Shown here: piece by piece, positions 20,045 through 40,988 of the stretch
Layout: each line of letters begins with the position of its first letter
Numbering within the stretch: the first letter of the stretch is position 1
IMG/VR virus record: IMGVR_UViG_3300006092_000342
Span: 1 to 64,000 of that record
Source of the DNA: a virus
Lineage: Duplodnaviria; Caudoviricetes
Reading direction: 5' to 3' (one strand)
Length of the DNA stretch: 64,000 nt
Made by a program: the position numbers and the translations under genes
The notes under the pieces: model-generated
The model's database searches: none
Told to the model about the DNA's origin: nothing
Seen by the model: only the letters and a program-made list of their open reading frames with translations

Positions 20045-20786
20045 ACTTAATCATCAAGATCTCAGTTTTTGTGTAATGAGACTTCCTTATAATTTAAGAG
20101 AAGCTTTAAAACAGAAATACTTTGAAAAAAAAATCATAATTGCCGGAGGGTTTATCCGTTGTGTTATCTCTCAAGAAAAAATCAATGATATTGATTTATT
20201 TACCGAGAATGAAAATATGGCTAAAAAATTTAGTGGATTGTTTCCAGAATCAAAGCATTCTACTCTAAATGCTATTACTATAAAGACAAAACCTACAATT
20301 CAAATTATCACTAAATGGCTATTTACTAATCCTATAGATGTAGTTAATAGTTTTGATTTTACTATTTGTCAAGCATGTATCTACTATGAAAACGGTCAAT
20401 GGAAAAGTTATTGTAGTGAAAAATTTTATCAAGACTTAGCTGCAAAAAGATTAGTATATACCTCTCCCAATAATAGAATAGAAGAAGCAGGAGGATCTAT
20501 GCTACGAGTTTTAAAATACTATCAAAGAGGTTTTAGAATTCCCTTAGATAGTTTAGGCAAAGTAATAGCCCGTTTAATGGCTTCAGTAGATAGAAAACAA
20601 TTATCTGAAGATGAAGAAGCTAGAGTTATAACAGGTTTATTAAGAGTTGTAGATCCTGCTATAGACCCTACGCATGAAAGTCATTTACCTATTATCGATA
20701 ATATAGATCTATCAGAACAAATGGAAGATGTAGAAGAAGCAAAAACAACTAAACTAATTCCCATAGATGGGCCTATAATTACTTAG
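20037..20786 (+). CDS. Nucleotidyltransferase (poly(A) polymerase/CCA head-like, Pol-beta superfamily)
   Basis: IAGGFIR...NDIDLF, FDFTICQ, RVLKYYQRGF. Confidence 0.8.
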   Translation: MPELNHQDLSFCVMRLPYNLREALKQKYFEKKIIIAGGFIRCVISQEKINDIDLFTENENMAKKFSGLFPESKHSTLNAITIKTKPTIQIITKWLFTNPIDVVNSFDFTICQACIYYENGQWKSYCSEKFYQDLAAKRLVYTSPNNRIEEAGGSMLRVLKYYQRGFRIPLDSLGKVIARLMASVDRKQLSEDEEARVITGLLRVVDPAIDPTHESHLPIIDNIDLSEQMEDVEEAKTTKLIPIDGPIIT

Positions 20787-23700
20787 GTTTATTAACTAGA
20801 ATTTTTGGCGTAATTCTTTCTGGAAATTCTACTTTAAAACGCTCATCATCTATCCCATACTCCCACATTTGATTTACAGGGTTTACAATTAAAGTTCGAG
20901 CTAATTCAGGCATATTTAATCCTGGAACTAAAGGAAGGAATTGTTTATTTATCTGATCTGTTACTAATCGATCTCTACTAATGACTGCTTTGGAATTAAA
21001 AAACTCAAAAGCATTTCTTACGAATGGATCTACTTTTATTAAAGCCTTTTGTTGGGAAGTCATTCCTTGATAAGGACCTGAATTAATAACATCTGGTTGA
21101 TCTTCTTCCCAAAATGTGAGTAATTGCTCTAGAGGAAAGCCCATAATAGTTATTATTCGAAGCATATTATCCCCAAAAGTTCCCCAGCTGTTAATAGGTT
21201 TATCTAAATTACTCATTAACTGAGTCCAACTAAAAGAACCTCCAATCTCGGATATAGCTCTTTTTGTATGGTAGCTAGCTTGCGCGGCTGCCCAACATGG
21301 CCAGGATTCGTAATTATTATTTTCACAATTTTTTATAGCCAAATGTGTAAAAAATGAAGCCATTTGTTCCCCAATTACTACTGTAGCTGTAGCAGTTAAT
21401 AATCGACCAAATGCATCGCGCATATCATAATTACGAATTCTTTGGCTTTTAAAATTCTCCCGGGTTTTTTGATCCCAGATCGATTTCATAGCCAACTGAA
21501 AGTATTTTAGATAAGACAATTCTTCAGTATTCAAAGCCATATTATTCCGGTTTTGCAATAACTGTTGACCCCAACGAACCAGGTACCCTTTTAAACTAAA
21601 TAGGAATTTACCTCCTAAACCCCTCATAGCTTTAGGTTGATCTGTAGTTTTCATATCGAGCTCTGCTAATCCCTCAGTTAAATATTGGTGCACAGCAGCT
21701 CTCATATTTATTGAAAATTTGTCTTCATGGCCAGCTTTAGGTTGAATTTTATCATTGACGATCTCTAGCATATCCCACGCAGATTCTCCTTCAGTTCTAA
21801 AAGATTCCCGGGTCTGGTCGAGGGTAACCCCTATATCGGTTGTAGCTTTCCACCGATGGTAAACATCCGGAGTCATGAACATATTTGCCTCTGGAATCCA
21901 TTTATAGCTTTGTAGTGCTGCTTTTGTGAACATCCTTGCCGGACGATGGTTTCCCATTTTCATAAGCCCATATCCATGAATATCGCTCATAAAATGAGTA
22001 AACCACGTTTGGTAATCCCGGGCCTCCCGAGTCCGATCGATAATACCAAAATATTCCTGGACCAAAGAAGTCTTAGTAAAGTTCCGATTCTGGAAATACT
22101 CTAAGACGCCATTAAGCCGATCTTCTCCGTACAGCTTACCATAATAAGCTAAAGCCTCTAATACTCTCGGTTTAGATTCGCCAGGTACCTGCAAAAACCG
22201 GCCACTATAAGCCATGTTTAAAAAACCGACTGTAGACTGACTTTTCGCGCCACTCGCACTGTATATGTTACTCCATAAAGTCAATGCTGTAGTAATTCCA
22301 GGAAGCTTTGAAAGTAAAAAGAAGATTCTTAACCGTTTTGGGTTATTCTTAACCCAATCCGGGAAGCTGGTATGTTCTTCATACAGATCACGTTCCAACC
22401 AATCATCTATGAGATTTGCCCAATACTTGCTGACATCACTAGAATGATTTTCAATTTCTTTGGTATAATTGATCAAACTTTCTGGAGAAAGTTCCTGTTG
22501 ATAAACTGTTGACTGTTTTTTATCAACCACCGAAACTTGCCGAAGCTTTAATAAAGCTCGCATAACCTCCCATTCTTGCAGACCTTTATGTTTTCTATCA
22601 AAATTATCTAAAGATTGCCAGTAAGTAGAAATAAGCTCAAAGTAGTTATCCATTAATCTTCCAGCAGAATCATAGGGATTAACCCCACGCATAGGTATTT
22701 CTGGATTTTTTTTATCCAATACAAATTTATCTTCGTCATTTATTTCGTAAAAACTACGAATATTATCCTTAATTCTTTTCCAAGCTTCTCCAAATTCTAA
22801 GTTTTTCAAGCGACTCCATACATCTGTCCCATGTCCTTCAAAAGCTCCCGATTGGTATAGACGTAATCGATTATAATTAGTTAAATTTTGTCTTTGAATT
22901 TTTCTATAAATTTCTGACTGCATTTGAAACATGTAATCATAAATTTCTTTGAATTCAGGAACACTATATAATTTTTTAAATAAATCATTTTGAAAATTTA
23001 CTGCCGGAAGTTCTAATTCAAAGGGAACATAATCCTCTCCTATCTTATAACTTAAACTATATGTCATGTCATTAGGACGATATGCCGGTACCGCCAATTC
23101 TCCAAGATAAATAGTATCATAAGTAGGAATATTATTTTGTATTCTATAATAATATTCCTCTTTAGTTAAGAAAGGTCTTACTATTTTTTCACTAGCTTTT
23201 AGCCATTTTGAAAATTCAGATGGCGATAAAGTTTGTCTTTTTTCTTTAATGATTTCATTACGTTCTGTTTCAGGTTTTGCTTGATTAAAAGTCATATCAT
23301 ACCCAACTTTTAAAGCATTATAAAGCCTCCTTACTTCTAATAAAATAGGATCTTCAGTAAGTTCCCAAGCTTTTTCAGACTTAAATAATTTATTCCTTTC
23401 CTGTTGATCATGTAAGAGATCCCCAACAGGAATTCGTAATACAGAACCCTTTTTTTCCAAATATTCATTAAGCTGGTTATAAATATTTGTCATGTACTCT
23501 TTTTGTTCCCGAGCCAATTTATCATGGAACCACTCTGATATTAAGTAATGAGTACGCTCTCCCTTTATTGTTTCATGAAATAACTCCTGGAACTTTCCGG
23601 TTTTTGTTAATTTTAGTGCAGCTTTAATTTCAGGATGTTCCAGTAACTTATCAATATTTTTTTCATAAAGTTCAGATAAACCAATTCGCTTATCCATAGC

Positions 23701-26550
23701 CGCTACTTGGGCTTGACTACTTAAACGGGACAAACTAGACACAAGACTCGCGAATATTTTATCGCTATTTTGTTTAGCACCTAATAATTCTTCCCAAGCT
23801 CCCACATCTGTTACAATTTCTTCTTCTAGAGGTTTATAAAACTTTAAGTTTTTACCTGTTTCTGTTTTATCAGTACCATTTACTTGATCTAAGATTCGAT
23901 CAATTTTAAACTCTAATAAGAATTCTTCAATTTCTTGAATTTTAGCTACTGAATCCATTAAAGCTTGTTCTGCAGCTTTTCTTTTATTTTTGGGAAAATA
24001 ATTCATAATTGAATTTCTTAAATCTACATTAGTAGCTCCCAACTCTAAAGCAATATCTTTGAATTGCTGTAATTTCATAAACATTAAATCGTACTGATAT
24101 TTATCAGGACGACCTATTTTCAATAAAACCTTTCTTTGGTTAAACTCTTGTTCTGCTGCTAATAAATTACTGTGTTCTGGACTACCTATAACACTTCCAT
24201 TATATTCATATTTTCTACGAGCTTCTACTAAAACCTCTTCCGCTGCTTTTAAATTCTCTTTTGCTTGATTAATCAAAGGTCTGTTAAATGTATTAATCCG
24301 TTTCAACATAACATTTAATTCATCAAACATAGGAGGAATCATGTATGGTCCGTCTTTAAGCTGAATTTCTTGTCCTAGTAAAAATAAATGAACAGCCTTA
24401 CCTATTTGTTCCCTTTTAATATAACCATTAACTGTTTGTAATTTTAAATTAAGACCTTCCAAACTAGATAACCGATTTAAATACTCTTTGTATTTGCCTT
24501 GCCATAATTCATAGTGACTGGGTTGATCTACTGCGGTTCGAGTAGCTTCTATAATATTAGTTTGCAATCCTCCTTTAATGGCATCATTAATAGCAATAAT
24601 TTGCTTTTTTATTTCTTGATTTACTTGATCTACAGACATACGAGGATATTTCAATTTTGTAGATTGATATACATCCATAATATGACTTGTATAAACATCC
24701 CATAGAGTAAACGACCCTAGATTAACTTTAGACAAGATTGGTTTTAAAGAAGCTACAAATCCATAGGACTTTCCATCAGTAACTTCTAAAATATCAAAGT
24801 TTTTGAGAGCTCTCTCACTTTCTTCTTTAGACATAATTCGAATTTCTTCCCAAACCGAATTAGGTACTAATTTACTTACAACTTCCTTATCATTTTTAAG
24901 ACTTGCTATAAAATTAAAATAATTTTCAATAAATTCAGGAAGATATAACGTAGCTATTTCATTTTCTAAACCCTCTTTTTGTAATCGTAAGACTTCCGGA
25001 ATCTCATCTAAAAATTGAACAATATCTTCCCTGATATTTTTACTGATAACTTCTATAAAATTCAGATCTTGTGTAATTTCAAAATCACCTTTCAAAGACA
25101 TGTGATTAATATCTTGTGCGTATTTTTGAATAGCATCAGTATATTTTTTTAATCCTTCTTCTTCTTTGCGTATTGTACTTAAAGTATCTAAAAACTTACG
25201 ATTTAAAACAGCTTTCCATAATTTATCCAGATCTTCTACATTTTCGAATAATTTAGCTTTTAGATTCTTAAACCATCGAACTAAAGATTCTAACCAATTT
25301 TGAATAACTCCAGCGGCTCCTTTGCTTTTTATGTTAATGATATAATTTTCTTTCCTTAATTCTGCTTCTAAAGCTCCCCCAACTAATTGCCCTGCAATTT
25401 CGATACGAGATAATTTGTTTGCAAGAGCCTGGATTTCTTCAATACTATAATTTAAAAGTTTAATATTACTTTCTTTTTGAAGCTCTGCATTTAAAAAATC
25501 AAAACGAGCTTGATTTATATCAGGATCTAAACGTTCTTCTCTAAATTCCTGTAATTTTTCTATCTCAGCATTGACTCGATTAATATACTTATTATAAATT
25601 TGGTTAAACCGGCCTTTATATTCAGGAGTAAGAGCTAAATAATCTATCCCTTGGGAAGGTTGCTCCCAAAGCTTAAAATTTAAACCTTCAATATTTATAT
25701 TATATTTTTGTAACCAATAAACAAAAATATGACCAGCTTCTTCAAATACATCTTCCGTAGTATAACCGTTAGGACGTAAATGTATTTTTCCTGTATAAGT
25801 ACCATCCGCCATTACTTTTGCAAAAGCCCAAACTTTATTTTTGTACTGCAGATCTAACTGTCCCGAATTAATTAATTCGTCTAATTCTTGATCGATTATT
25901 GCTGGGGATCTTTCTACTTTAATGTCATAAAGCTCTAATAATTTTACCAAAATATTTTCTAAGTCTTCATTTATTTCTCCCCGATTTTCATCTCTATCGC
26001 TAAAAAATGTACTAAAACTTTCAAAAATTTCTCCATCAGTTAGTAGTTGTTGATTTGCTTTTTTAACTAAGGATTCTAAACTTTCTTGAGGTTTTAATAA
26101 GACTCTAGGATTGATAACTTCGATATCTACTAAACTTTGTCCTTCATATACATGAATATCAGACACATCAATATAATTTTCAGGCATGAAAGTTTTTAAC
26201 TGACTTGTTACGCTTTCAATATCTTCAGGAGCAACTTTTAAATTAATTTTATCATGATTTTCATCTATTAAAAAGTTGAGATCTTCTTTATGATAGTCCG
26301 GAAGTTCAGAAAACTTAACAGCTCTTTTGAAACTAGAAATTCCTTTTTTAGAATTTAAAGGATAATTTAATTCTAGAGTAGGATTAGCTTTTTTTAAATA
26401 TTTATCTAATTCTTCTTTACTTGGAAAATCATCAGTATCCATTTCTTCTTGCCAAGTACTAACATCTGCAGCAAGTTCTAAAATAGAGTTATTTGTTTGA
26501 CTTAATAACTCTTGAAATTCCGGATGTTTTAAATTAATACATTTCTTCAT
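20779..26550 (-). CDS. Giant virion ejection/cargo protein with an EExxH zincin-like domain
   Basis: ATG 26550 (ATGA overlap) gives MKKCINLKHPEF; VFEEAGHIFV...EIAGQL; helical; hydrophobic segments near the C-terminus. Confidence 0.8.
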   Translation of the reverse strand: MKKCINLKHPEFQELLSQTNNSILELAADVSTWQEEMDTDDFPSKEELDKYLKKANPTLELNYPLNSKKGISSFKRAVKFSELPDYHKEDLNFLIDENHDKINLKVAPEDIESVTSQLKTFMPENYIDVSDIHVYEGQSLVDIEVINPRVLLKPQESLESLVKKANQQLLTDGEIFESFSTFFSDRDENRGEINEDLENILVKLLELYDIKVERSPAIIDQELDELINSGQLDLQYKNKVWAFAKVMADGTYTGKIHLRPNGYTTEDVFEEAGHIFVYWLQKYNINIEGLNFKLWEQPSQGIDYLALTPEYKGRFNQIYNKYINRVNAEIEKLQEFREERLDPDINQARFDFLNAELQKESNIKLLNYSIEEIQALANKLSRIEIAGQLVGGALEAELRKENYIINIKSKGAAGVIQNWLESLVRWFKNLKAKLFENVEDLDKLWKAVLNRKFLDTLSTIRKEEEGLKKYTDAIQKYAQDINHMSLKGDFEITQDLNFIEVISKNIREDIVQFLDEIPEVLRLQKEGLENEIATLYLPEFIENYFNFIASLKNDKEVVSKLVPNSVWEEIRIMSKEESERALKNFDILEVTDGKSYGFVASLKPILSKVNLGSFTLWDVYTSHIMDVYQSTKLKYPRMSVDQVNQEIKKQIIAINDAIKGGLQTNIIEATRTAVDQPSHYELWQGKYKEYLNRLSSLEGLNLKLQTVNGYIKREQIGKAVHLFLLGQEIQLKDGPYMIPPMFDELNVMLKRINTFNRPLINQAKENLKAAEEVLVEARRKYEYNGSVIGSPEHSNLLAAEQEFNQRKVLLKIGRPDKYQYDLMFMKLQQFKDIALELGATNVDLRNSIMNYFPKNKRKAAEQALMDSVAKIQEIEEFLLEFKIDRILDQVNGTDKTETGKNLKFYKPLEEEIVTDVGAWEELLGAKQNSDKIFASLVSSLSRLSSQAQVAAMDKRIGLSELYEKNIDKLLEHPEIKAALKLTKTGKFQELFHETIKGERTHYLISEWFHDKLAREQKEYMTNIYNQLNEYLEKKGSVLRIPVGDLLHDQQERNKLFKSEKAWELTEDPILLEVRRLYNALKVGYDMTFNQAKPETERNEIIKEKRQTLSPSEFSKWLKASEKIVRPFLTKEEYYYRIQNNIPTYDTIYLGELAVPAYRPNDMTYSLSYKIGEDYVPFELELPAVNFQNDLFKKLYSVPEFKEIYDYMFQMQSEIYRKIQRQNLTNYNRLRLYQSGAFEGHGTDVWSRLKNLEFGEAWKRIKDNIRSFYEINDEDKFVLDKKNPEIPMRGVNPYDSAGRLMDNYFELISTYWQSLDNFDRKHKGLQEWEVMRALLKLRQVSVVDKKQSTVYQQELSPESLINYTKEIENHSSDVSKYWANLIDDWLERDLYEEHTSFPDWVKNNPKRLRIFFLLSKLPGITTALTLWSNIYSASGAKSQSTVGFLNMAYSGRFLQVPGESKPRVLEALAYYGKLYGEDRLNGVLEYFQNRNFTKTSLVQEYFGIIDRTREARDYQTWFTHFMSDIHGYGLMKMGNHRPARMFTKAALQSYKWIPEANMFMTPDVYHRWKATTDIGVTLDQTRESFRTEGESAWDMLEIVNDKIQPKAGHEDKFSINMRAAVHQYLTEGLAELDMKTTDQPKAMRGLGGKFLFSLKGYLVRWGQQLLQNRNNMALNTEELSYLKYFQLAMKSIWDQKTRENFKSQRIRNYDMRDAFGRLLTATATVVIGEQMASFFTHLAIKNCENNNYESWPCWAAAQASYHTKRAISEIGGSFSWTQLMSNLDKPINSWGTFGDNMLRIITIMGFPLEQLLTFWEEDQPDVINSGPYQGMTSQQKALIKVDPFVRNAFEFFNSKAVISRDRLVTDQINKQFLPLVPGLNMPELARTLIVNPVNQMWEYGIDDERFKVEFPERITPKILVNKPK

Positions 26551-29500
26551 TGCATACATTTTTTATAATATTCCAATGCCTTAGCTTTACGATCTTGAGG
26601 TAAATTATTTAATTGTTCTAAAGTATAAGCAGGAGTTCCTATTTTTGCTAGAGATGTATTAATAACATCTAATTGTTCTTGGGTGAAATTAATAGAATCA
26701 TTTTCTAAAGAAGGATCTTCCTTTTTATGAAACTTAACTTGATACTCTCCCGGCTTTGTTTCTTTTAACAAATATTCAGCAGCCCATCCTTCGGTTTTAC
26801 TCCATTGAGTTAAAAATTCAGGATTTTCACGATCTGCTTTGGTAATCTTGTGTACACTATCTACAACTACTTGTACTTTTTCTTTTTGTTTATTGGTAAA
26901 TACTATTGTTTTTCCTACTAAATCTTCTACAGATTTTAAATTTCCTTTAACTACATTATGCCAATAACCCCGTGTAGTAGAGGTACGATCTCCTTTCACA
27001 ATAGCTGCAAAAGTAGTAGTATCTTCCCCATAAATATTGTTTTCAGCTTTCATTTCATAATCCATAGGCTCTTCTAATAAATTGGAAGAAGTTAACGGAA
27101 GTACTTTTTTATTTGTACTCACTGTAGATGAATTTTCTGGTATTAAATGAGTAGTACTTTCATTAGGTTGTACTATTACAGATACATTCCCCGGAGTAAA
27201 GTCATCAAAACCCTCCGATCCTTTTGTATTAATACGAACATAATTGCCAGAATCCGTATGCTTATAAACTTGAATAACTTCTTTCAATTTTAGACTTAAC
27301 ATTTTTGGAAATTTCCCTGCTACTCCTACAGAATTTGCATCTATTTGAAAACCTAATGTTAAGTTTAAATTCTTTAAATTATTATCTGTATAATATTTTT
27401 TAATTTTCCCATAAGAAATTGTAGGTAAAAATTCTTCAGGATTATTTAAAACCGCTAATTCTAAAAATCCGTTAACTCCAAAAGTATTTAAATCCTGGTC
27501 AAATTTATTTTCATAATTTTCCCATACACTTGCTGGAATAAGTGGGCCCCAATTATTGTTAGCTCGACTCCATCCTTTATAGATACTAAAATCTCGAAGA
27601 TCTTCCGCAAATTGTCTTAAAATCGGATCTGAACTTTTAATCATCTTCATAAACCCTCCTTCAAAATTTTCTATAAAAGAAGAGTCTTGAAATATTCCAG
27701 AAATTAATTGTAAATCACGCGTTTCCTTAACAAAACCTTCTTCTTTATAATAAATTGGATTTTTACTATATCCTAGATAACTAAGAATAGATAATATTTG
27801 GTTGTAATCCCCTCTTAATTTAATATTGTCTTCTGCATTAAATAAATTTTGAACATAATTTCTAACAAAACCTAGACTTCCTGGGAAGTAATAAATCCCA
27901 TCTTCTTTTGCGATACCTCGTTTACCTAAATGAAGCAAAGATCCTAAAGGCTTAACTTGTTTAGATTTGACTGCCCGCCTCATGTATTCGTTTAAACTAA
28001 GCCAAGCTGAATTAGATAAGGTATGTAAATATTCTCGATCTAATACAGTAATAGCTTCTATAAACTTAGGATGAAAATAAGTAGTTATAGCATTAAACGT
28101 TTTAATTTTTAGTAAAAAGGCTTTTGCAGCTTGATCAATAACAGGTATTCCGGTTAAATTTTTGAGACTGAATTCATTATTTGTATGTTGAATTACTGGC
28201 ATTAAATTCTCAATGTTTATAAATTTAGAAGATAATTCTTTTAATTCAATTAACATATCCCGGATTAATTCTGGACGAGGTTCTTGTGCTTTTGTTAATC
28301 TTTGAAAATTAATAGTTAAACTACTAAAATCGACACTTCTATCTTTTAATAGTAAGAATTTTGCAAATACTTGTTCACTATTAGCAGTCTTTGAATTTAG
28401 ACTTTCTAAACTAATTTCACTTAATAGATTTGCCTCATCATATAAAAAAGCTTCTAGGTTATCTTTTTTGGATATCCCTAATAATACTCTTTTCAATTCA
28501 TTCAATTTTGAAAAATATTCCCAACCTTGATATTTAACAGCAAGGGTATCTTTCATAGCAATGTAGTCCTGAATAACAGGATACTGTAAAAACTTAATAC
28601 TGTATTCTTCCGTACTACGCATCATTGTCATTACATCTAAAACAGCACTGAGTTCTTTATTTAATTTTAATTTACTTAAAGTTGCATTTTTAGGCATATT
28701 GACTGCAGCACTCACTCCTTGAGCTAATAAGTGTAATTTAGCAATTGGACCCTCTTTTGTATCTGTTATCCAATTAGTAAGCGAATTACCATAATTTTTA
28801 TCCAGAACTGGGTATGGTTTAACAAAAGATAAGGGCTTATTTTGAAAATGACCTTTAATAAAAGTAGATACGGTTAACACAACAGCTTTTGGTCCAATAG
28901 CATTCGAAGCTAAATCATTTAATTTTTGATACTCTAAATTATATTCTAAAGTTCCTGGTCTGTAATTTGGTAATTTTTCGTTTTCAGCTAACAAATCTAA
29001 TCGATTGTACTCTCCTGGAATACGTTGCTCATTACCTTTTTTTCGCAAAACTTGATCATAAATACGAGCATAAAGGCTCTGTCGTTGAGCCTTGCTTTCT
29101 AGTCCTGGAGATACTAATTGTAATTGATCTCCTCTATAATTTATTTGAGAAATTAAAGTAAAAAGAGCATCAGCATCAAAGTCGAAACCTGTCTGAGTAG
29201 TCATTTCCTTAGAAAGTTCTATTCCATTTCCAGAATGGTTTGGACTGAAATCTTTAATTTTTAATCGAATATAACTATATGCAAATTCTGTAGGTATTCG
29301 ATAACTGACAAAGAGAAAACCGATCTGATTAAGTTCTTGAATAATTTCTTCATCACTTTCAAACCAAACGCGCGCATCGTTTAAATTTTTCCCAGAAGTT
29401 TCTAACTTACGTCTTTGATATTCAATTAATTCAGGCCATTTTGCAATACGACATTCCACTTCTAATCCTCTATTTTCAGGAGTTCCTATCAATTTTGTTT

Positions 29501-32500
29501 GTAAGCCTCCCGTATAAGCTACGTTCTTAAAAGCAGGAGAGTTTGTTTTTATCTCTAAAATTTTATTAATTGCAGAATTAACTGCATTCATAAAAGTAAT
29601 TTGATTATTACTACTATAGGGTCTAATTTTAAAATTTGTATTACTTGCATTTAAATCAATACTATTAATAGTTTCACTAGTATTCCAAGTACTATTTCGT
29701 GCTTTTTCTAATAAGAATAAACTCAACTCTTTAAAATCGATTTCATTGCCTGATAAAAAAGAAATATTTTCAATTTCTTCTTGCATATCTAATGCTAAAG
29801 CTTTCTCAAATAATTCTCGTAATTTTTCTCCTGACAATTCTGAAGAATAACCAGGTATATTAGAAAAACCTAAAGAATATGTTTTTTCATCTTCAATCAT
29901 TCCAGGAATTTGGAACCTACTTTGACTACCCAATACTCTTGCCTTTAAATCATTTTTATTAGGTTGTTCCGTAACTATTTTCAAATCCTGCATTTCAATT
30001 TCTCTAACTAGAGGTTTTTCCGATTGCTCTAAATCATACATACCAAAATTACCAAATTTAGCTCCACTAGAATAATATGCATAATCTATACCATTATTTT
30101 GATCATGGAGTTTAAATAATTCAAACTCTAATTTTGCTAAATCCGGGGTTTTATACTGTTGGTAAACCTGAGAAACAAGCATTCCTTGTCGTGCTGCTAA
30201 TTGATCTGGTCTTATTAACTCATTATCTATAGTTCTATAAACTTGGGAAGGTAGAGACCATTTAATCATATACTTTTGAATAGAAGGAGATAAAATTTTA
30301 TATCCTTCTTCGCCTCGAAGATAACCTGCTTGTTGTTCCTCGTGAGCATATACTCCAAATTTAGTAGGTTGAAAAACAACACCTTTAGCTGATAATTCCT
30401 GAATGGTTTTTATGTCTAGGTTAAGTTCGGCTTGGTATAAAGCTTCTTTATCTGAATCCCAATTACTATCAGTTTTTCTTAAAAAGGCAAGACTTCCGTA
30501 TGCAGCACTATCAGTTTCATTATTATTTTCAAAAGCTTTTTTTGAAATTTCTCTGTATAATTCCGGTAATTCTTCTTCAATACTATTTAAAAATGCACTA
30601 CTACTTTTGCTAAATTTATCTTTTAACATAACAAATTTAGCATTTCCTTTCAAATTATTAATTCTACCATCTGTATGAATTTGCTTTAATCGTTTACTTA
30701 TATCTCCATAATCAGAACCAAAATAGGGATGTAAGATTAAAAAACCCAAAGAACTACTTTGATAAAATGTAGTATTATAATACCAGTTTTCAATAAATTC
30801 GGGAGTCACATGAGAAGCAAATAAATTAAAATCAGATTCAACTTCAACAGTTACTGTTTGTTCTTTATAACTAATACCGCCATTATCACTTACATTTCGA
30901 GTTTCTTTTACCTTTTTTAAGCGAGTCTCAAATAAATTTGGCTTTTCGATAAACTCCTTATAAAAATTAGAAAAATTTGTTTGCATATCTTTTGCAATCA
31001 ATTCCAAAACTTTATCCTGTTTTTCCAATAAAAGAGTTCTGTAATTATTAAAATATTCAGGACTTAAATCAGTCACAGTTAATTCTGATTTTCCGAAAAT
31101 TAACTCGTTCATCCCTGGAATAAGAAACCCTTTAATTTTATTTTTATTAAAGTTTTTATCTTCTAACTTAGAAAATAAATAATCAAGTTCTGCCTGAACT
31201 AAACCAAAGCTCTTATTAATAATTTCTTTATTATCCAAAAAAGGAGCTTGTAGTAAATATGCAGTAGGACTGTCACTTAAATTACCTATCCAAAAATTAC
31301 CTAAATATTCTTTAGAATTTTTAGCCTGAATTCCTATATTTATCAAATCTATAACTCTTTCTGTAGTACTAAGATTTTCCCAACTTTTTTCTACTTTTTT
31401 ATTACCTCCATATTTTTTTAAATCGAATTGAGGATGACTGCTTAAAACTAAATCAAGTAATGGATTATATCGTAAGCCAAATAATTTTTTATAATAGGAA
31501 GAAACTAAACTTGGATTTTTTAATACTGCTTTAAATTTACGTAATAAAAAATTAGGTTGATGATAACTTTGTCTTTGATTATTTTCTGAATCTTTATAAC
31601 TAGTTAAATATTGTTTATTACCCGCACTAGAAAGTACACTTGCTAAACTATTTATTAATTTACGAGCTTCCGAATTATCTCCTCTTATAAAGTCATATTG
31701 ATAATTATTCTTTTGTAGACTTAAAGCTAAATCGCTAAGTGTTGCAAGAAAAGGAGAAATAGTAGTCGTTTTAAAACCTACTATATTTTTACGGCCAGGT
31801 TCTTTAAATCCATAAGCCATGTTTTTAATATTCTGTTCATTTATATTAAAACCTAATTTTTGAAAAACTTGTGGAATTATATCAAAGAAATTTCGAGTAG
31901 TAACACTTCCAGCAGATGTATAAGTTCCAACCGCTTTTAAAACCCAATCTATATCTTTTTTTAAAAGATCTTTAGAAATCCGTTCTCCTGTAGAATCAAA
32001 GCCATAATATTCCACAGATTGCATCATAATATTTGCAAATGACTTTTCATTATATACAATATTCGAACTTCCTATTAAAAAGTCGTTATTCTTATAGCTA
32101 TATCGATAAATTTCTTCTAAGAAGTGTAATTGTCCTATTCCTTCCCAAAGTTCTGTTTCTAACAAGGACTTTCCTAATTCTTTTTCTTCTTGTAATTTAA
32201 AACGCAGAACTTTCAACCAAGGATCTCCTTTTTCAGATAAATCTTGTAATTTACTTAACATTTCTTCAATACTATTACTGCTATTTAATTGTCGTAATAG
32301 GGATTCAACTCGATCCTTTAAATTGAAATTAAACGTAAATAAATTAGAAATTTTATTATAAGAAACTCCTTTTAAATTACGAACATCAGTTTGTTTTACA
32401 ATTTTCTTAGTTTCTCCTTGCAAAACATAATTATTAGGATCTCCTTCTACATTGTCTGCAGAAATAGTATCAGGAATATTATAGAGTAAAACCCTAAGAT

Positions 32501-35303
32501 TAATTCCTAGTTTTTGAATTACATCTGCTTCAGTTTCTTTTACTATTCCTAGTTTATCCTGTTCTAAATCGTAAATATCATAGTTTATCTTTAAACCGTA
32601 GCTATTTGCTAAATCTGCTCGTAAATCAGCATGGAGTGCCGGTTCATTCATTAGTCTTAAAAGAGACTCTAACTTAGAAATGTCGCTTTGATTTAACTCG
32701 TTATTTTGCTTGGCAAGATCTCGAATTATACTTCGAATATGGTTTTTAACATCATCATATAAATCTTCTAAGCTATTGCTGATATCATAAGTATCATCTC
32801 CTTTTAAATTATTAATTAATTTTAATGTATTTAATTTAAAATTAATACTATTCCCATCTAGAATCTCCGGCAAATAATTCCTGTTAATAATATTTACAGC
32901 TTCTTTTCTTCTTTCATTATTTAATGCCGAATATTCAGGAGATAAACTATATCTCACACCTTCTGATATTTTTTTTGGCTTTACATTCTTATAATATCCT
33001 GAATGAAAGCGATCACTAAACAATTGAATTGCATCTCTTTGATTAAAAAGGGTATTTAGAATTTCTTTCAAAATTGCAATAAACCGTTTAATAAATCCAT
33101 CAGGTAAATCTCTTGGATCTGCTCTAACAATCTGCATTAAAGCTTCCTCTAATTCAATTTCACTTGTTAAAGGAATTCCTGTACGTTCCGCTACCTCTAA
33201 GAATAATTGTTTTTGTTGTTCCGGACTTAACTGATCAAATATAGCATGACCGAATTCTTCTTTTAAAACTCCTGTACTAATAAAATCTTTAGCAAAACCT
33301 ACCATTTTGGTTCCTCTATCAAAATATCCATTATAGAGATCTTCAATAAGTTTATCATAAAATGTAATCTCAAATCCTGGGAAATTTTGCTGGGCCCAAA
33401 CTCTAGCTTGATCTACTGATAAAGTTTCTTGATCAATAGTTGAACTAAATAAAGGTTTTATTAAATCAGATTTAGGCTTAACCTGTTCCGTCCAAAATGT
33501 AAGATCTCCTGTAGGTCGATCATCTGCTAAATTAGTAATTAATACTCCATACTTGTAGATATAATTTTTTAAGTATTTTTGATTATTAAAATGTTCAACA
33601 CTAACTTGACTTCTTTTATTAGATAAAGTAGTAGGTTCCCCTAGATTATTTATTACAATATTAGTATCTTCTTGAAAAAATTTTTGATACAACGCATCTG
33701 CATTATCTCCAAATTCAGTTTTTTTGTAATCGCTTTTATATTTTTTGGCCGCAGTTAAAATATCTACAAAATCTTTTGTTATAATTTCTTGCATTCCTAT
33801 AAATTCTCGAAGTGCTTGAATTACATTAATAGGAGCTTCTGCAAATAATGAACTATAAACCTCTCCGGATATTTTAGGATTAACTGTTTTAAGATAATTT
33901 TTTAAATTTTCTTTAGTGGGTTCAATTCCTTGGGAATCTGCATAAATTTCAAACTGAATATTATATCTAGAATAAACACCTTCATTATTCCAAATTTTAT
34001 CTACCCAACGATTTTGCATATAATCTTTACCATCATTGAATTTAATGGTAGAATTATCTACAACATTTATAATTTGATATTTACCTTCGATCTTAACTAC
34101 ATCATAATTAATATCCCCTCGAAATATTTTTTTTATAATACCTTCAAACCGCTTTGCAAAAATTGGATTATCTCCCCATGATTTTGTGATCATCCGAATT
34201 GGGAAATAATGCTGTCCTTTTTCTACATAACTTTTTCCTGTATTAATATTGCTTGGTAATAGCAAATGAACATCTCCATTATTTAAGTTGTAAAATAAAG
34301 ATTGATCTTCTATAAGATTTCCATTATTCAATTCTAAGTACTGACTCCCTGGATCTTTATCCTTTCGTCTTACAATACCTAATAACGGAACTACCTCTTT
34401 ATTAAACCAGGACAGTACACTCAAATTCTTGAATTTTTGTTGGACTTGTTTTTGAGCTCCTGGAGTATCTTTTGAAACCAGATTTCCTTCTTGATCTGTA
34501 TAAATTTCTTCATAATTAATTCTACGATTAAATCCTGCTAGAAATTTAACTTCTTCTGTAACTGCAGGACTGTAATGAATAATATCATTATTAGTAACAA
34601 TACCATCGGTTTCTCCAATTTTCTTTTTATACTCAATTGCTTTTTTTTGCAAAGCTTGTCTTAATGCCTGATTTGATTGATTAGTAGCCCCTGCAAATTC
34701 ATGAAAACTTCCAACATATTTGACTTGTGCTTTACCTTCTTCTAATAAAGTTCGCATCAATTTAAAATCTTGTGTAACTTCTAAAGGGTATGGATTATTA
34801 GAAGTATCTGTAAATACTACAGCTGTAAGTTTTGTAAATCGTAATTTATCAGAATTTTCTCTAGCAAGAGTTCTGAAATTTAAAAAACCATACTCTTGGT
34901 TATAAGGAGTTTTTTCGCTATAAATAAAATGAACAGGAGTTCCTGATTTAAACTGAGCACTATTTACAAAATCCTGGCCCTCTCGATGTAATTGTAATGT
35001 AGGTGCATCTAAACTAGCAGGAGCTTCCAAATTAACTACTTGGAAGTCTTTACCACTATTATAAAAAAAGCGGTCTTTACTATGAATTTGAGTTAATACA
35101 GGTTGATTTCTTTGGAGTAATCCATTTTGTGTTTGTGCTATTAAATTACTTTGAGAATTAGCATGAAGCTGTATGAACTGTTCTTTAGACAAAAAATCAT
35201 AAACATCTGCATTCTGTGTAACAAAATCTAATGCTTTTTTTTTGCTATCAAAACTCTGTGTACCTCCTCCAGGAAGTTTTACAATTTGACAAGGTTGACT
35301 CAT
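26547..35303 (-). CDS. Virion-packaged RNA polymerase polyprotein (crAss/phi14:2 gp66-like)
   Basis: LGSQ, YRIPTE...S, TGFDFDADAL (DxDxD at 29169-29183); N-terminal EEFGH zincin-like domain; C-terminal ASCH-like domain. Confidence 0.88.
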   Translation of the reverse strand: MSQPCQIVKLPGGGTQSFDSKKKALDFVTQNADVYDFLSKEQFIQLHANSQSNLIAQTQNGLLQRNQPVLTQIHSKDRFFYNSGKDFQVVNLEAPASLDAPTLQLHREGQDFVNSAQFKSGTPVHFIYSEKTPYNQEYGFLNFRTLARENSDKLRFTKLTAVVFTDTSNNPYPLEVTQDFKLMRTLLEEGKAQVKYVGSFHEFAGATNQSNQALRQALQKKAIEYKKKIGETDGIVTNNDIIHYSPAVTEEVKFLAGFNRRINYEEIYTDQEGNLVSKDTPGAQKQVQQKFKNLSVLSWFNKEVVPLLGIVRRKDKDPGSQYLELNNGNLIEDQSLFYNLNNGDVHLLLPSNINTGKSYVEKGQHYFPIRMITKSWGDNPIFAKRFEGIIKKIFRGDINYDVVKIEGKYQIINVVDNSTIKFNDGKDYMQNRWVDKIWNNEGVYSRYNIQFEIYADSQGIEPTKENLKNYLKTVNPKISGEVYSSLFAEAPINVIQALREFIGMQEIITKDFVDILTAAKKYKSDYKKTEFGDNADALYQKFFQEDTNIVINNLGEPTTLSNKRSQVSVEHFNNQKYLKNYIYKYGVLITNLADDRPTGDLTFWTEQVKPKSDLIKPLFSSTIDQETLSVDQARVWAQQNFPGFEITFYDKLIEDLYNGYFDRGTKMVGFAKDFISTGVLKEEFGHAIFDQLSPEQQKQLFLEVAERTGIPLTSEIELEEALMQIVRADPRDLPDGFIKRFIAILKEILNTLFNQRDAIQLFSDRFHSGYYKNVKPKKISEGVRYSLSPEYSALNNERRKEAVNIINRNYLPEILDGNSINFKLNTLKLINNLKGDDTYDISNSLEDLYDDVKNHIRSIIRDLAKQNNELNQSDISKLESLLRLMNEPALHADLRADLANSYGLKINYDIYDLEQDKLGIVKETEADVIQKLGINLRVLLYNIPDTISADNVEGDPNNYVLQGETKKIVKQTDVRNLKGVSYNKISNLFTFNFNLKDRVESLLRQLNSSNSIEEMLSKLQDLSEKGDPWLKVLRFKLQEEKELGKSLLETELWEGIGQLHFLEEIYRYSYKNNDFLIGSSNIVYNEKSFANIMMQSVEYYGFDSTGERISKDLLKKDIDWVLKAVGTYTSAGSVTTRNFFDIIPQVFQKLGFNINEQNIKNMAYGFKEPGRKNIVGFKTTTISPFLATLSDLALSLQKNNYQYDFIRGDNSEARKLINSLASVLSSAGNKQYLTSYKDSENNQRQSYHQPNFLLRKFKAVLKNPSLVSSYYKKLFGLRYNPLLDLVLSSHPQFDLKKYGGNKKVEKSWENLSTTERVIDLINIGIQAKNSKEYLGNFWIGNLSDSPTAYLLQAPFLDNKEIINKSFGLVQAELDYLFSKLEDKNFNKNKIKGFLIPGMNELIFGKSELTVTDLSPEYFNNYRTLLLEKQDKVLELIAKDMQTNFSNFYKEFIEKPNLFETRLKKVKETRNVSDNGGISYKEQTVTVEVESDFNLFASHVTPEFIENWYYNTTFYQSSSLGFLILHPYFGSDYGDISKRLKQIHTDGRINNLKGNAKFVMLKDKFSKSSSAFLNSIEEELPELYREISKKAFENNNETDSAAYGSLAFLRKTDSNWDSDKEALYQAELNLDIKTIQELSAKGVVFQPTKFGVYAHEEQQAGYLRGEEGYKILSPSIQKYMIKWSLPSQVYRTIDNELIRPDQLAARQGMLVSQVYQQYKTPDLAKLEFELFKLHDQNNGIDYAYYSSGAKFGNFGMYDLEQSEKPLVREIEMQDLKIVTEQPNKNDLKARVLGSQSRFQIPGMIEDEKTYSLGFSNIPGYSSELSGEKLRELFEKALALDMQEEIENISFLSGNEIDFKELSLFLLEKARNSTWNTSETINSIDLNASNTNFKIRPYSSNNQITFMNAVNSAINKILEIKTNSPAFKNVAYTGGLQTKLIGTPENRGLEVECRIAKWPELIEYQRRKLETSGKNLNDARVWFESDEEIIQELNQIGFLFVSYRIPTEFAYSYIRLKIKDFSPNHSGNGIELSKEMTTQTGFDFDADALFTLISQINYRGDQLQLVSPGLESKAQRQSLYARIYDQVLRKKGNEQRIPGEYNRLDLLAENEKLPNYRPGTLEYNLEYQKLNDLASNAIGPKAVVLTVSTFIKGHFQNKPLSFVKPYPVLDKNYGNSLTNWITDTKEGPIAKLHLLAQGVSAAVNMPKNATLSKLKLNKELSAVLDVMTMMRSTEEYSIKFLQYPVIQDYIAMKDTLAVKYQGWEYFSKLNELKRVLLGISKKDNLEAFLYDEANLLSEISLESLNSKTANSEQVFAKFLLLKDRSVDFSSLTINFQRLTKAQEPRPELIRDMLIELKELSSKFINIENLMPVIQHTNNEFSLKNLTGIPVIDQAAKAFLLKIKTFNAITTYFHPKFIEAITVLDREYLHTLSNSAWLSLNEYMRRAVKSKQVKPLGSLLHLGKRGIAKEDGIYYFPGSLGFVRNYVQNLFNAEDNIKLRGDYNQILSILSYLGYSKNPIYYKEEGFVKETRDLQLISGIFQDSSFIENFEGGFMKMIKSSDPILRQFAEDLRDFSIYKGWSRANNNWGPLIPASVWENYENKFDQDLNTFGVNGFLELAVLNNPEEFLPTISYGKIKKYYTDNNLKNLNLTLGFQIDANSVGVAGKFPKMLSLKLKEVIQVYKHTDSGNYVRINTKGSEGFDDFTPGNVSVIVQPNESTTHLIPENSSTVSTNKKVLPLTSSNLLEEPMDYEMKAENNIYGEDTTTFAAIVKGDRTSTTRGYWHNVVKGNLKSVEDLVGKTIVFTNKQKEKVQVVVDSVHKITKADRENPEFLTQWSKTEGWAAEYLLKETKPGEYQVKFHKKEDPSLENDSINFTQEQLDVINTSLAKIGTPAYTLEQLNNLPQDRKAKALEYYKKCMQ

Positions 35304-38300
35304 ATATTACAAGGTCTAATTAAATTAGAATTTTCAAAAAGTTCATCCAAAGAAACACTATCATTTATTAATGGTATTTCTACACTATCATCAACAGGAA
35401 AATCATCCAAAAATAAAGTTTCATCATTCTGAATCTCTGGAATTTCTTCTTCTCTATTTTCTCCTTGGGAATAAAAAGTATTTATAATGCGTTTTTCAAC
35501 TTCATTACGATCCGGAGATAATACCAAAGCTTTTAAATCTGTAGTATTTTTAACTTGAGATAAAGCTTCTACAAAACTAGAATTTACTCCAGGAACATTA
35601 TTTAACTGGTTAACCAACATAGTGCGTTCTGGCATAAATAAAAAAGAACGTTGAGCTTCACTGTTATTATAACGTTGATCTACCTGTTCTGGTGTTTGGC
35701 TCCCTGCAGCATCTCTTAATCGAGATAGAGCTGCTTTTATAATTGCTTTTTTCTTTTCTTCAAAAAGCTTTTTAGTTTTTGGATCTGAAGTTAAATCTGC
35801 TAAAGATTCATTATAGCCTTTTATTAAACTTTCAAAAGTATCATGGTTTAATTCTTCTCGAAAACCCATAGCATTGTTCACACCTCCTTCTCTAAAAAAG
35901 GAATCTACTTGTCTTTGAAAATGAGCAGTTTCTTGTAAAAATTTAGCTTCATTTTTAGCACTTTTTTTCTGATCTACTAAATTAGAAAGATCCGCAGCTT
36001 CTTGCTCTGTTTGACTTATCTCTGAAATAACAGCTTCCGGAGATTTTCCAGTTTCCTCGACAGCAGTTTCGATAATATGCGCTTTATGTTCATCACTATC
36101 TTTTTTTAGATTTTTATTGTCTTTGATTAAATTAGTTAAAACTTTAGTATATGCTTTAACATAAGCATCATTTAATTTAATATCCTGCTCAATATTACCA
36201 ACTTGAATAGGGTCTCCTTGTGTTTTATTTTTTTGCTCTTCTAAAAATTTACCCACTGATTGAAATTCAGTTAAATTTCCTACAGCTTCAAAAACACGTT
36301 TCCTTAATTCCGGGGTAATATTATAATTTTTATTATTGAGATCTTTAAAAATTCTTTGACTGTAATCATAAGTTTGAGCTGTGCTAGCTAATGCATTTTC
36401 AATTTCACTAAACTGTGCTTTTATATCGTTTTTTGAGATATAGGGCGTACTACTCTTTATATCTAAATCGCCGGTACGCGCTTTTAAAGCTCCCAAAATA
36501 TGTTTAACAGTATCATTATGTTCTACTCCATTTTCCCGAGCTTGATAATATAATTTATTCAAACCCTCTTGTTCTAGAACATGACGCAATTGCCAATCTT
36601 TACTTTGCTCTGCAGCTCCCTTTGCTATTTCATTTTGCATAGCTTCAAAAGCAAATTTTAGATGGCCAATAACATTTTCATCCATATTCAATGGATCCGT
36701 AATTACTGAATTTATTTTGTCTGTATCAATAAATTTCAACTTTTCTTTAATTCCTTTTTGGCGCATTTCTCCAAATCCCCAACGTGCTGCATTAAATCCT
36801 CCGGAAGTAGCCGCGCCTGTTATAAAAGACATTGTTACTTCTGGATCCAGATTATACAAATCTTTAAAAGCAGTTAATCCCCCTCCTATAATAGTCTCCA
36901 TACTAGAATTACTAGCAGAATCTTTACTCCCCTCATATTTAGTAATATCAGTTTGAATACTTTCTTCATAACCTTCTTTACCAAGATCTAACGCGGCTTT
37001 ACCCCAACGACTGGTCCAGGGTGCAAATAATTCATTAGTAATGGGCGCCACTTCTTCCGTAGCATTCCTGGCAGCTATACTGCCATAAGCACGACTCATA
37101 TTAGATTTAGGAAACAAACCTAAAAGCTTATAACTAGCTAAATTGCTCAAACCTAAAATGGCTAGATTAGCTTTTCCCACATTTTCAGCTTTTGCGCGAG
37201 CAATAACTTTAGCTTCTTCCATATCAGAGTCTTCTACAATTTTAGTAGCTTGTTCTGGTGGAATCCCGGTATCTACTAATTCTTTAATTTTAGCTTGAGT
37301 TGCCTCTTGCATGTATTGATCATAAGCCTGGAATTTTTCTAAATCAGCTTCAAATTTAGTACCGCCAATCATGGCCCCTGTACTTCCTATAACTTCTCCG
37401 GTATGTTTACCTCTAGCTGCAGCTTCTTCTAAATCAACAGTAACTTTTCCTACTCGAGACTTAATGTAAGCTTTTATAGAAGGAGATTCAAAATCGGGTT
37501 TATCTATATATTTCTGAAGGGTTTCTTTCCATTTTAAAGTTTCAGCTCTTTGTGCATTTTTTAAGTTTAAATTACCTTTAACGGTCCCTAAACCTTTTCC
37601 AACAGCCCCGGCACCTTTAGTTACTAAAAAGTTAGAAGCATACAATCCTCCCATAAAGCCAATACCACTTTGTAATCCTGAAGCAAAAGTAGAAGCTACC
37701 CATTCAGGATTTTGCCATGAAGGTTCTCCTTCTGGACTTTTAAAATCGACAGTAATATCTTTTTTGAATTTTTCAAAATCTTTAGTGTACTGATCGTTAT
37801 AACTATTTTCAATTAATTGCTTCTCTTCTTGATTATAACTTGGTTGTATCGGAGAAGTTTTTTGTTCCCAAGTATTTTGTCGAACATCATACGCATTTTT
37901 TATAGTTTCTGGACTTGGGAGTTCTCCATTTTTAGCCCACGCACCTAAGAGTTCTTGAGATGCTGAAACCGCAGAACCCACTGCTCCAAATAAATTAAGA
38001 GCACCTCCATATAAATCTTTTAAGGTTTTGGTCACTCCGGGAACACCTCCGGTTACAATATCTTTACCTACACCATACGTACTTTCTACAGTATTTACAG
38101 CAGCTTCAACAAGACCATTGTATCCAATAGCTCCGATAGTTTTTGCACTTCCTAGAAAACTACTCCCATCTGTTACTCCAAAACCGAATTGAGCTTCTAG
38201 ACCTGTATTAGACTCTGGACTTTCCTGTGGATAGATCGGACCTGGAGTTCCTCGAGGAGCTTCCTTATTTAATCTTCGTTGAGTTCTATTATAATTTTCG

Positions 38301-38632
38301 ACTAACTGCTTTCTATCGTATTGACCTATAAGATCCAAATTAAATTTACCGCTTTGTAATGCTTGTATAATTTCAGCTTTGGTACCTTCAATTTTAGTGC
38401 TATCTGCTTTAAAATCGCGGAAACTAGGTATGACAGGATCGTAAATTAAATCATCATAATTTACTTTAGAAGACTCTTTTCTTATCTTAGGATTAATTTC
38501 ATAAATACCTTTGGATCCGTTATTCCCATAAATGATTCCAAATCCCCCATCATCTTTTGGAATAATTTTTAGATCCCCTTTGCCTGTTTTAAAACCTTCG
38601 AAAAGTTTTGATACAATTTCTTCGGGATTCAT
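35300..38632 (-). CDS. Large ejection/cargo protein
   Basis: Gly/Ala-rich amphipathic segments, EGYEESIQ motif, helical C-terminal half; directly upstream of the vRNAP gene. Confidence 0.75.
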   Translation of the reverse strand: MNPEEIVSKLFEGFKTGKGDLKIIPKDDGGFGIIYGNNGSKGIYEINPKIRKESSKVNYDDLIYDPVIPSFRDFKADSTKIEGTKAEIIQALQSGKFNLDLIGQYDRKQLVENYNRTQRRLNKEAPRGTPGPIYPQESPESNTGLEAQFGFGVTDGSSFLGSAKTIGAIGYNGLVEAAVNTVESTYGVGKDIVTGGVPGVTKTLKDLYGGALNLFGAVGSAVSASQELLGAWAKNGELPSPETIKNAYDVRQNTWEQKTSPIQPSYNQEEKQLIENSYNDQYTKDFEKFKKDITVDFKSPEGEPSWQNPEWVASTFASGLQSGIGFMGGLYASNFLVTKGAGAVGKGLGTVKGNLNLKNAQRAETLKWKETLQKYIDKPDFESPSIKAYIKSRVGKVTVDLEEAAARGKHTGEVIGSTGAMIGGTKFEADLEKFQAYDQYMQEATQAKIKELVDTGIPPEQATKIVEDSDMEEAKVIARAKAENVGKANLAILGLSNLASYKLLGLFPKSNMSRAYGSIAARNATEEVAPITNELFAPWTSRWGKAALDLGKEGYEESIQTDITKYEGSKDSASNSSMETIIGGGLTAFKDLYNLDPEVTMSFITGAATSGGFNAARWGFGEMRQKGIKEKLKFIDTDKINSVITDPLNMDENVIGHLKFAFEAMQNEIAKGAAEQSKDWQLRHVLEQEGLNKLYYQARENGVEHNDTVKHILGALKARTGDLDIKSSTPYISKNDIKAQFSEIENALASTAQTYDYSQRIFKDLNNKNYNITPELRKRVFEAVGNLTEFQSVGKFLEEQKNKTQGDPIQVGNIEQDIKLNDAYVKAYTKVLTNLIKDNKNLKKDSDEHKAHIIETAVEETGKSPEAVISEISQTEQEAADLSNLVDQKKSAKNEAKFLQETAHFQRQVDSFFREGGVNNAMGFREELNHDTFESLIKGYNESLADLTSDPKTKKLFEEKKKAIIKAALSRLRDAAGSQTPEQVDQRYNNSEAQRSFLFMPERTMLVNQLNNVPGVNSSFVEALSQVKNTTDLKALVLSPDRNEVEKRIINTFYSQGENREEEIPEIQNDETLFLDDFPVDDSVEIPLINDSVSLDELFENSNLIRPCNI

Positions 38633-40987: not shown

Positions 40988-40988
40988 G

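Follow-up and report, generated by a model that had tools for sequence, protein, structure and literature searches.

Paired terminal cysteines at the gene junctions of a crassvirus RNA-polymerase cargo block suggest a tether between giant virion proteins

Among the phages of the human gut, Crassvirales are the most abundant. Two cultured members, the marine phage phi14:2 and crAss001, share a block of genes in which a giant virion RNA polymerase with a DFDxD catalytic motif is flanked by two further giant proteins (g067-g066-g065 in phi14:2, where g066 is the polymerase of PDB entry 6VR4, and gp47-gp50-gp49 in crAss001), downstream of the muzzle gene and of two smaller cargo genes. In crAss001, gp45, gp46, gp47, gp49 and gp50 were found in virions by mass spectrometry and are thought to exit through the tail partly unfolded (PMC10172136). 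The ejection proteins of N4-like phages (Schitoviridae; gp50 of N4, gp71-gp73 of DEV), which include a giant virion RNA polymerase, are nearly free of cysteine, a feature ascribed to their passage through the periplasm (PMC11445570). Here we analyse a block of the same layout in a 64,000-nucleotide stretch of viral DNA (positions 1 to 64,000 of IMG/VR record IMGVR_UViG_3300006092_000342, hereafter the window). Three giant proteins, termed A, B and C, are encoded head to tail on its minus strand, and the few cysteines that they contain are concentrated at the chain ends that face the two gene junctions. The same rule holds in phi14:2 and crAss001.

Protein A (1110 residues; 35300-38632, minus strand) would be the first link of the chain proposed below, B (2918 residues; 26547-35303, minus strand), the virion RNA polymerase, its middle link, and C (1923 residues; 20779-26550, minus strand) its last. 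Translation bears out the cysteine counts of one, three and three reported by the first-pass annotation, a reading of the sequence made without database searches, and also its observation that four of the seven lie at the two junctions. At junction 1, the single cysteine of A (residue 1108; codon 35309-35311, minus strand) stands on the upstream side and Cys 5 of B (35289-35291, minus strand) on the downstream side. At junction 2, Cys 2916 of B (26556-26558, minus strand) is followed across the boundary by Cys 4 of C (26539-26541, minus strand). The terminal peptides, with PCxI on both sides of junction 1 and KKC on both sides of junction 2, and the spacings between the cysteine codons (20 and 17 nucleotides) are as first described. 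The remaining three cysteines are internal (B residue 1951, C residues 1742 and 1752), and the outer termini, that is, the N terminus of A and the C terminus of C, have none. The start of B is unambiguous, with an in-frame stop two codons upstream; C may start at ATG 26550 or at ATG 26559 (giving 1926 residues), and its N-terminal cysteine lies at most seven residues from either.

The 5951 residues of A, B and C thus hold seven cysteines, four of them two to five residues from the four junction-facing termini. Under uniform placement, given the cysteine count of each protein, the probability that all four junction ends receive one by chance is 5e-9. Cysteine is otherwise suppressed in this block, with 7 cysteines in the 7673 residues of the five cargo-block proteins (0.09%) against a mean of 1.81% for the 96-kb genome, in sharp contrast to the tail proteins, which contain 4-10% (up to 9.7% beside the muzzle gene). 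This suppression resembles that of the N4-like ejection proteins. However, the N4-like polymerase is a single chain of about 3500 residues with essentially no cysteine, for which no terminal cysteine rule has been reported, whereas the window block is split and keeps one cysteine at each split end.

The cysteine of A closes an acidic tail of about 53 residues (35303-35461, minus strand) that AlphaFold2 predicts to be disordered: in a model of the last 300 residues, a helical domain with predicted local distance difference test (pLDDT) values of 80-91 is followed by residues 248-300 at 32-44. The first 590 residues of B gave a poor prediction (mean pLDDT 41, from three sequences), in which a small hairpin and helix directly after Cys 5 alone reached about 79, and this model is not used as evidence.

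Several lines of evidence identify the three proteins as the RNA-polymerase cargo block of a divergent crAss-like phage. Protein B carries the DFDxD motif at residues 2041-2045 (29169-29183, minus strand), its residues 1493-2057 match virion RNA polymerase genes of crAss-like phages by tblastn, and a profile of its core finds chain A of 6VR4 (phi14:2 gp66) in the PDB at E 1e-34. Only the profile search succeeded there; phmmer with B against the PDB returned no match. The polymerase is only 22-25% identical to those of phi14:2 and crAss001, over the core only. No Pfam or PHROGs families were found in A, B or C, and by phmmer A and C show no similarity to gp47/g067 or gp49/g065, matching only their counterparts on one related contig (L008, below). 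The HExxH motif is also absent from all three proteins. A and C are positional analogues of these flanking giant proteins: on one strand, the order is muzzle, two smaller cysteine-free proteins, A, B and C. By synteny with crAss001, the window proteins are most likely carried in the virion and ejected.

We then turned to the window's own lineage, which is very sparsely sampled. A HMMER search with A across 1.8 billion representative sequences returned, in addition to the query, six homologues at E < 0.001, of which only two are full-length; scans of viral_contigs and metagenome_contigs yielded no further relatives, and word-index protein searches returned only the window's own proteins. All four A homologues that reach the C terminus (34-48% identity) have a single cysteine, one to three residues before the last residue, and in the C-terminal alignment this cysteine is one of 17 invariant columns. 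Contig L008 preserves the whole arrangement: its A homologue has one cysteine, three residues before the end; its B homologue (2865 residues, 28.6% identical to B) has only Cys 5 and a penultimate cysteine; and its C homologue has Cys 5 together with an internal pair. On a second contig, L002, one residue follows the cysteine of the A homologue, Cys 3 is present in the B homologue, and both upstream proteins lack cysteine. Cys 5 of B is invariant in an alignment with two relatives (29-36% identity). The residues around the cysteines differ in both contigs, and the ATGA overlaps between adjacent genes, correctly noted for both window junctions, are not conserved in these relatives.

The internal pair of C (Cys 1742 and Cys 1752; 21297-21329, minus strand) is ten residues apart, and both are conserved in the L008 relative (1773 and 1785) at 28% identity. 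It could be an internal pair or a metal site, C being cysteine-free but for these two and its N-terminal cysteine.

Beyond this lineage, the first-pass annotation had suggested looking for terminal cysteines across Crassvirales cargo operons, and they prove to be conserved in cultured phages, in 80 IMG/VR loci and in distant relatives. The cleanest case is phi14:2, in which the three proteins contain four cysteines in 5398 residues, all at junction ends: g067 (1797 residues) has one, its last residue; g066 (2180 residues) has Cys 3 and a penultimate cysteine; and g065 (1421 residues) has one, at position 3. In crAss001, the only cysteine of gp47 is followed by two residues, gp50 has one at position 5 and another eight residues before the end, and gp49 has a single one, at position 5. 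The pattern recurs in cr85_1, cr106_1, cr126_1, cr116_1 and IAS virus. For a wider view, IMG/VR was scanned with a profile of the polymerase core, which gave the 80 loci; only proteins complete at the relevant end were counted. A cysteine is present within the first six residues of the polymerase in 78/78 cases and within its last ten in 77/77. The gp47-like protein has one within its last eight residues in 71/71, which is the sole cysteine in view in 70, and the gp49-like protein has its N-terminal cysteine in 76/76, once four overlong open reading frame starts are corrected. By contrast, none of 73 gp49-like proteins has a cysteine in the last ten residues of the outer C terminus, so that the claim of cysteine-free outer ends extends well beyond the window. 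The cargo block of these relatives contains 0.10-0.22% cysteine.

Overall, junction cysteines lie 0-8 residues from the C terminus or at position 3-6 from the N terminus, and in alignments of the terminal domains they are among very few invariant or nearly invariant columns. The rule holds in Intestiviridae, Suoliviridae, Crevaviridae and Flavobacterium phage Fpv2. We regard it as virtually certain that the junction cysteines are selected for a role specific to the junction.

The nature of that role is suggested by lineages in which the proteins are fused. Fusions of the first protein to the polymerase, 3500-4800 residues long, occur in Suoliviridae (cr1_1, cr50_1, cr60_1, cr10_1 and Azobacteroides phage) and in Flavobacterium phage Fpv2. 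These have no N-terminal cysteine and none at the fused joint, but retain one 0-10 residues from the end, and the protein that follows has its cysteine at position 3 or 5; of the 4401 residues of Fpv2 g33, only the penultimate one is a cysteine. In Intestiviridae (Carjivirus, Rudgehvirus, cr3_1 and crAss002) and Crevaviridae (cr127_1), the polymerase instead heads a chain of about 4100-4250 residues that, by annotation only, comprises the polymerase and a further subunit; here a cysteine pair is found only at the junction upstream of the polymerase chain. All fused forms contain the same modules in the same order. BLAST places the gp47-like part N-terminal to the polymerase in the fused giants; thus, the fusions join by a peptide bond exactly the ends that carry cysteines in the split forms.

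In every arrangement seen, the number of cysteine pairs equals the number of junctions. The first protein has a cysteine at its C terminus only, the middle one at both ends and the last one at its N terminus only, with none at the outer ends. This polarity is the signature of a linear chain. The cysteines also follow the junction and not a domain, since A and C are unlike gp47 and gp49, and since the fused joint of cr1_1, where a zincin HExxH motif sits, keeps the zincin domain without a cysteine.

On this sequence evidence, we put at roughly 0.6 the probability that the junction cysteines act as a thiol-mediated tether, most likely a disulfide, that makes one thread of the three proteins for packaging or ejection. 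The C terminus of A would pair with the N terminus of B, and the C terminus of B with the N terminus of C, the likeliest link being a disulfide formed after the proteins have entered the particle. So joined, the three chains would amount to a single thread of about 6000 residues, a chemical counterpart to the polyprotein that other crAss lineages encode as a fusion. A link at the extreme chain ends, on a flexible tail, would add almost no width, so that the partly unfolded thread could pass the narrow tail in a fixed order and at 1:1:1 stoichiometry; the position of the A cysteine, at the end of a disordered acidic tail, suits such a flexible tether. In the reducing cytoplasm of the host, the links would be cut and the polymerase freed; the purge of all other cysteines would also prevent wrong pairings. 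What the sequences show is the rule itself, how widely it is conserved, its chain-like polarity and the agreement with the number of junctions; from this we infer the pairing, the chemistry of the bond and the part in packaging or ejection. The first-pass annotation had proposed one chain joined in gene order; the linear-chain topology, the conservation and the polarity of the fusions uphold that idea, whereas its motif matching, ribosomal hopping and transpeptidation, considered below, are not supported.

A more detailed scenario, to which we give slightly less than an even chance, is that of a redox-cleavable protein train: terminal disulfides formed in the particle would couple a chain of about 6000 residues with the polymerase in the middle, to be uncoupled by host thiols, and other lineages would use a polyprotein with a zincin protease near the joint. 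Relative to the fused forms, the putative link in the window would be made after translation, between separate chains, and opened by reduction and not by a protease; lineages with a true polyprotein would rely on cleavage instead. Cleavage of the polyprotein has been suggested by the authors of the phi14:2 polymerase work. It has also been reported that crAss001 virions contain structural disulfides and that gp47, gp49 and gp50 must partly unfold to exit (PMC10172136).

A functional parallel lies outside phages. In AB-type toxins such as diphtheria toxin, botulinum neurotoxin and ricin, two chains are held by a single disulfide through membrane passage and released by reduction in the cytosol. 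The likeness is one of principle only: the proteins are unrelated, some of the toxin chains are nicked from one precursor, and their link is not end to end. We know of no phage example of an interchain disulfide of this type. No mention of the terminal cysteines was found in searches of the open full-text literature (subscription journals were not covered), nor in the crAss001 atlas, the preprint on the phi14:2 polymerase or the papers on DEV and N4; an end-to-end tether by terminal cysteines appears to be undescribed.

Several observations weigh against a disulfide tether. Most hosts are strict gut anaerobes, and in such reducing surroundings a disulfide may not form or last; the disulfides seen in the crAss001 tail come from virions purified in air. 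The absence of a pair at fused joints is also expected if the cysteines merely have to be terminal for some other role. In cr273_1, a TAG-recoded phage with 36 in-frame TAG codons, the C-side cysteine lies 49 residues from the end, within a low-complexity tail (contig L104, 20480-20632), and this is the sole soft exception to the rule that we have seen. Finally, an upstream cargo protein of some Intestiviridae has a single cysteine 1-10 residues from its C terminus with no visible N-terminal partner (contigs L094, 1213-5127; L100, 2490-4763; L106, 2553-4226), so not every terminal cysteine has a visible partner. This orphan cysteine may connect the protein to another, unknown partner, or may form a homodimer. 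The protein that carries it is annotated as transmembrane in crAss002, and in cr3_1 it is without this cysteine.

A different kind of break occurs in cr116_1 and bajarodcaudo virus 1 (contigs L105, 10526-21391, and L009, 17139-25322), in which the polymerase gene is interrupted right after DFD by a related endonuclease gene. There is no junction cysteine pair at this break: the downstream piece has no N-terminal cysteine, and the upstream piece ends in cysteine only in cr116_1. The interruption resembles a mobile intron within the catalytic site rather than a protein junction, and is therefore not counted as an exception.

The anaerobic habitat of most hosts would pose no difficulty if the junction cysteines tethered the proteins through a shared metal ion, bound by thiolate and other ligands, instead of a disulfide. 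A clasp of this kind would hold in the anaerobic gut and open under changed conditions in the host. It explains the conservation and the polarity as well as a disulfide does, and the C-side cysteine is indeed preceded, a few residues away, by acidic residues and, in some lineages, by a histidine. However, each terminus offers one cysteine, on neither side is a second ligand conserved at a constant spacing, and in the marine phage phi14:2 the termini are the barest possible, the cysteine being the last residue on one side and the third residue on the other. We consider a metal-mediated link unlikely.

Equally unlikely, in our assessment, are unpaired roles, in which each terminal cysteine separately binds the portal, the capsid interior, DNA or a host factor, or serves as the cysteine switch of a neighbouring zincin protease. 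A zincin HExxH motif does lie about 180-240 residues from the junction cysteine in the C-terminal region of crAss001 gp47, the N-terminal region of phi14:2 g065 and the C-terminal regions of Fpv2 g33 and the Carjivirus zincin protein, and the orphan C-terminal cysteine of some Intestiviridae also speaks for such roles. Such roles nevertheless leave unexplained why the outer ends never carry a cysteine (0/73) and why the number of cysteines is twice the number of junctions. The cysteine switch in particular was rejected: the window proteins lack HExxH yet keep their cysteines, whereas the fused cr1_1 protein keeps the zincin with no cysteine at the adjoining joint. Other modifications of single ends were discarded on positional grounds, namely CaaX-like lipidation, as the distance from the cysteine to the end varies from 0 to 8 residues, and a lipoprotein signal, as there is no signal peptide.

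A covalent chain could also arise during or after synthesis by means other than thiol pairing. The first-pass annotation had raised ribosomal hopping between matched codons, as in T4 gene 60, and Cys-based transpeptidation. A peptidyl-tRNA-Cys hop between the two TGT codons at each window junction, 20 or 17 nucleotides apart, would indeed join the reading frames, and at junction 2 a -1 slip on a run of six A (26559-26564, minus strand) would enter the C frame via the upstream ATG 26559. In T4 gene 60, matched codons likewise flank a short gap at a gene boundary, a likeness confined to the window. The T4 site, however, has a stop directly after the take-off codon and a stem-loop, both missing here: two sense codons follow each upstream cysteine codon, and folding shows no excess structure in the junction RNAs over shuffled sequences (z +0.53 and +1.16). 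The six-A run is missing in relatives. In many relatives the partner genes are not adjacent. In crAss001 and some 70 loci, the gp47-like gene runs convergently to the other two on the opposite strand but still encodes the C-terminal cysteine. In Carjivirus and crAss002, spacers of 130-260 nucleotides with a terminator-like hairpin followed by a T run separate the zincin-protein gene from the polymerase-fusion gene (L094, 13564-13693, and L106, 13079-13343, respectively). The strand reversal and the spacers refute recoding as a general mechanism, and we hold translation into a polyprotein by recoding to be very improbable. Transpeptidation found no more support, in that sortase- or intein-like features are lacking. 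Sortase or native-ligation chemistry is rejected because the cysteine is not residue 1 and no motifs were found; a split intein or trans-splicing, which calls for intein halves of tens of residues at both termini, is rejected on the same N-terminal placement (position 3-6), the cysteine 0-8 residues from the C terminus and the lack of intein or Hint families in Pfam. A nucleotide-level start signal was likewise rejected: the C-terminal cysteine of gp47 is not beside a start codon, and TGT and TGC are both used.

It had further been noted that each window junction carries its own matched motif. The match is real in the window, where two of the four flanking residues are identical at each junction (P ~5e-4, post hoc), but it is not conserved elsewhere. 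In five other three-protein systems, agreement at flank positions is 5/29 between true partners and again 5/29 after partners are swapped within a genome, contrary to the idea that adjacent termini share motifs. A pooled shuffle of flanks across genomes gave 12/70 against 5.5 expected, the excess coming from the window itself and from composition shared within genomes. The repeated DNA at the junctions, although present, consists only of the codons of the shared residues and is specific to the window. A matched-motif docking code was accordingly rejected. The weakest alternative, that the terminal cysteines reflect chance or composition and have no function, could appeal to the post hoc nature of the finding and to the window-specific flanks, but it is refuted by conservation (P ~1e-9 per three-protein system, recurring at <30% identity and in four families, with the cysteines among very few invariant columns of the terminal domains) and its probability is negligible.

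The surroundings of the block are those of a crassvirus. Its synteny anchor is the muzzle gene (43756-50181, minus strand), which encodes a protein of 2141 residues with 80 cysteines (3.7%) and matches Pfam PF25731 (crAss_MUZ) at 28.6 bits, just above the cut-off of 27, as well as PHROG 15100. No thioredoxin family was found in this protein in Pfam at E 0.01. Between the muzzle gene and A lie the two cysteine-free proteins, of 925 and 797 residues (38642-43766, minus strand), which by position correspond to cargo proteins C1 and C2 and stand outside the cysteine chain.

The rule also has a practical use, as it helps annotators to find the true starts and ends of these giant genes. For the genes downstream of the hairpins in crAss002 and Carjivirus, annotation places the start 21-32 codons too far upstream, and the start that agrees with the cysteine rule is an internal ATG; starts could be corrected in these two phages and in four IMG/VR loci.

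The 2023 crAss001 structure paper (PMC10172136) and a 2026 N4 paper both raise the question of how some 700 kDa of protein, including a giant RNA polymerase, can pass a tail tunnel with a width of a few nanometres. The tether can be tested directly in two cultured systems, phi14:2 and crAss001. If true, a conserved tether would account for the order and stoichiometry of ejection, for the occurrence of both fused and split forms of the block among lineages, and for the loss of every other cysteine.

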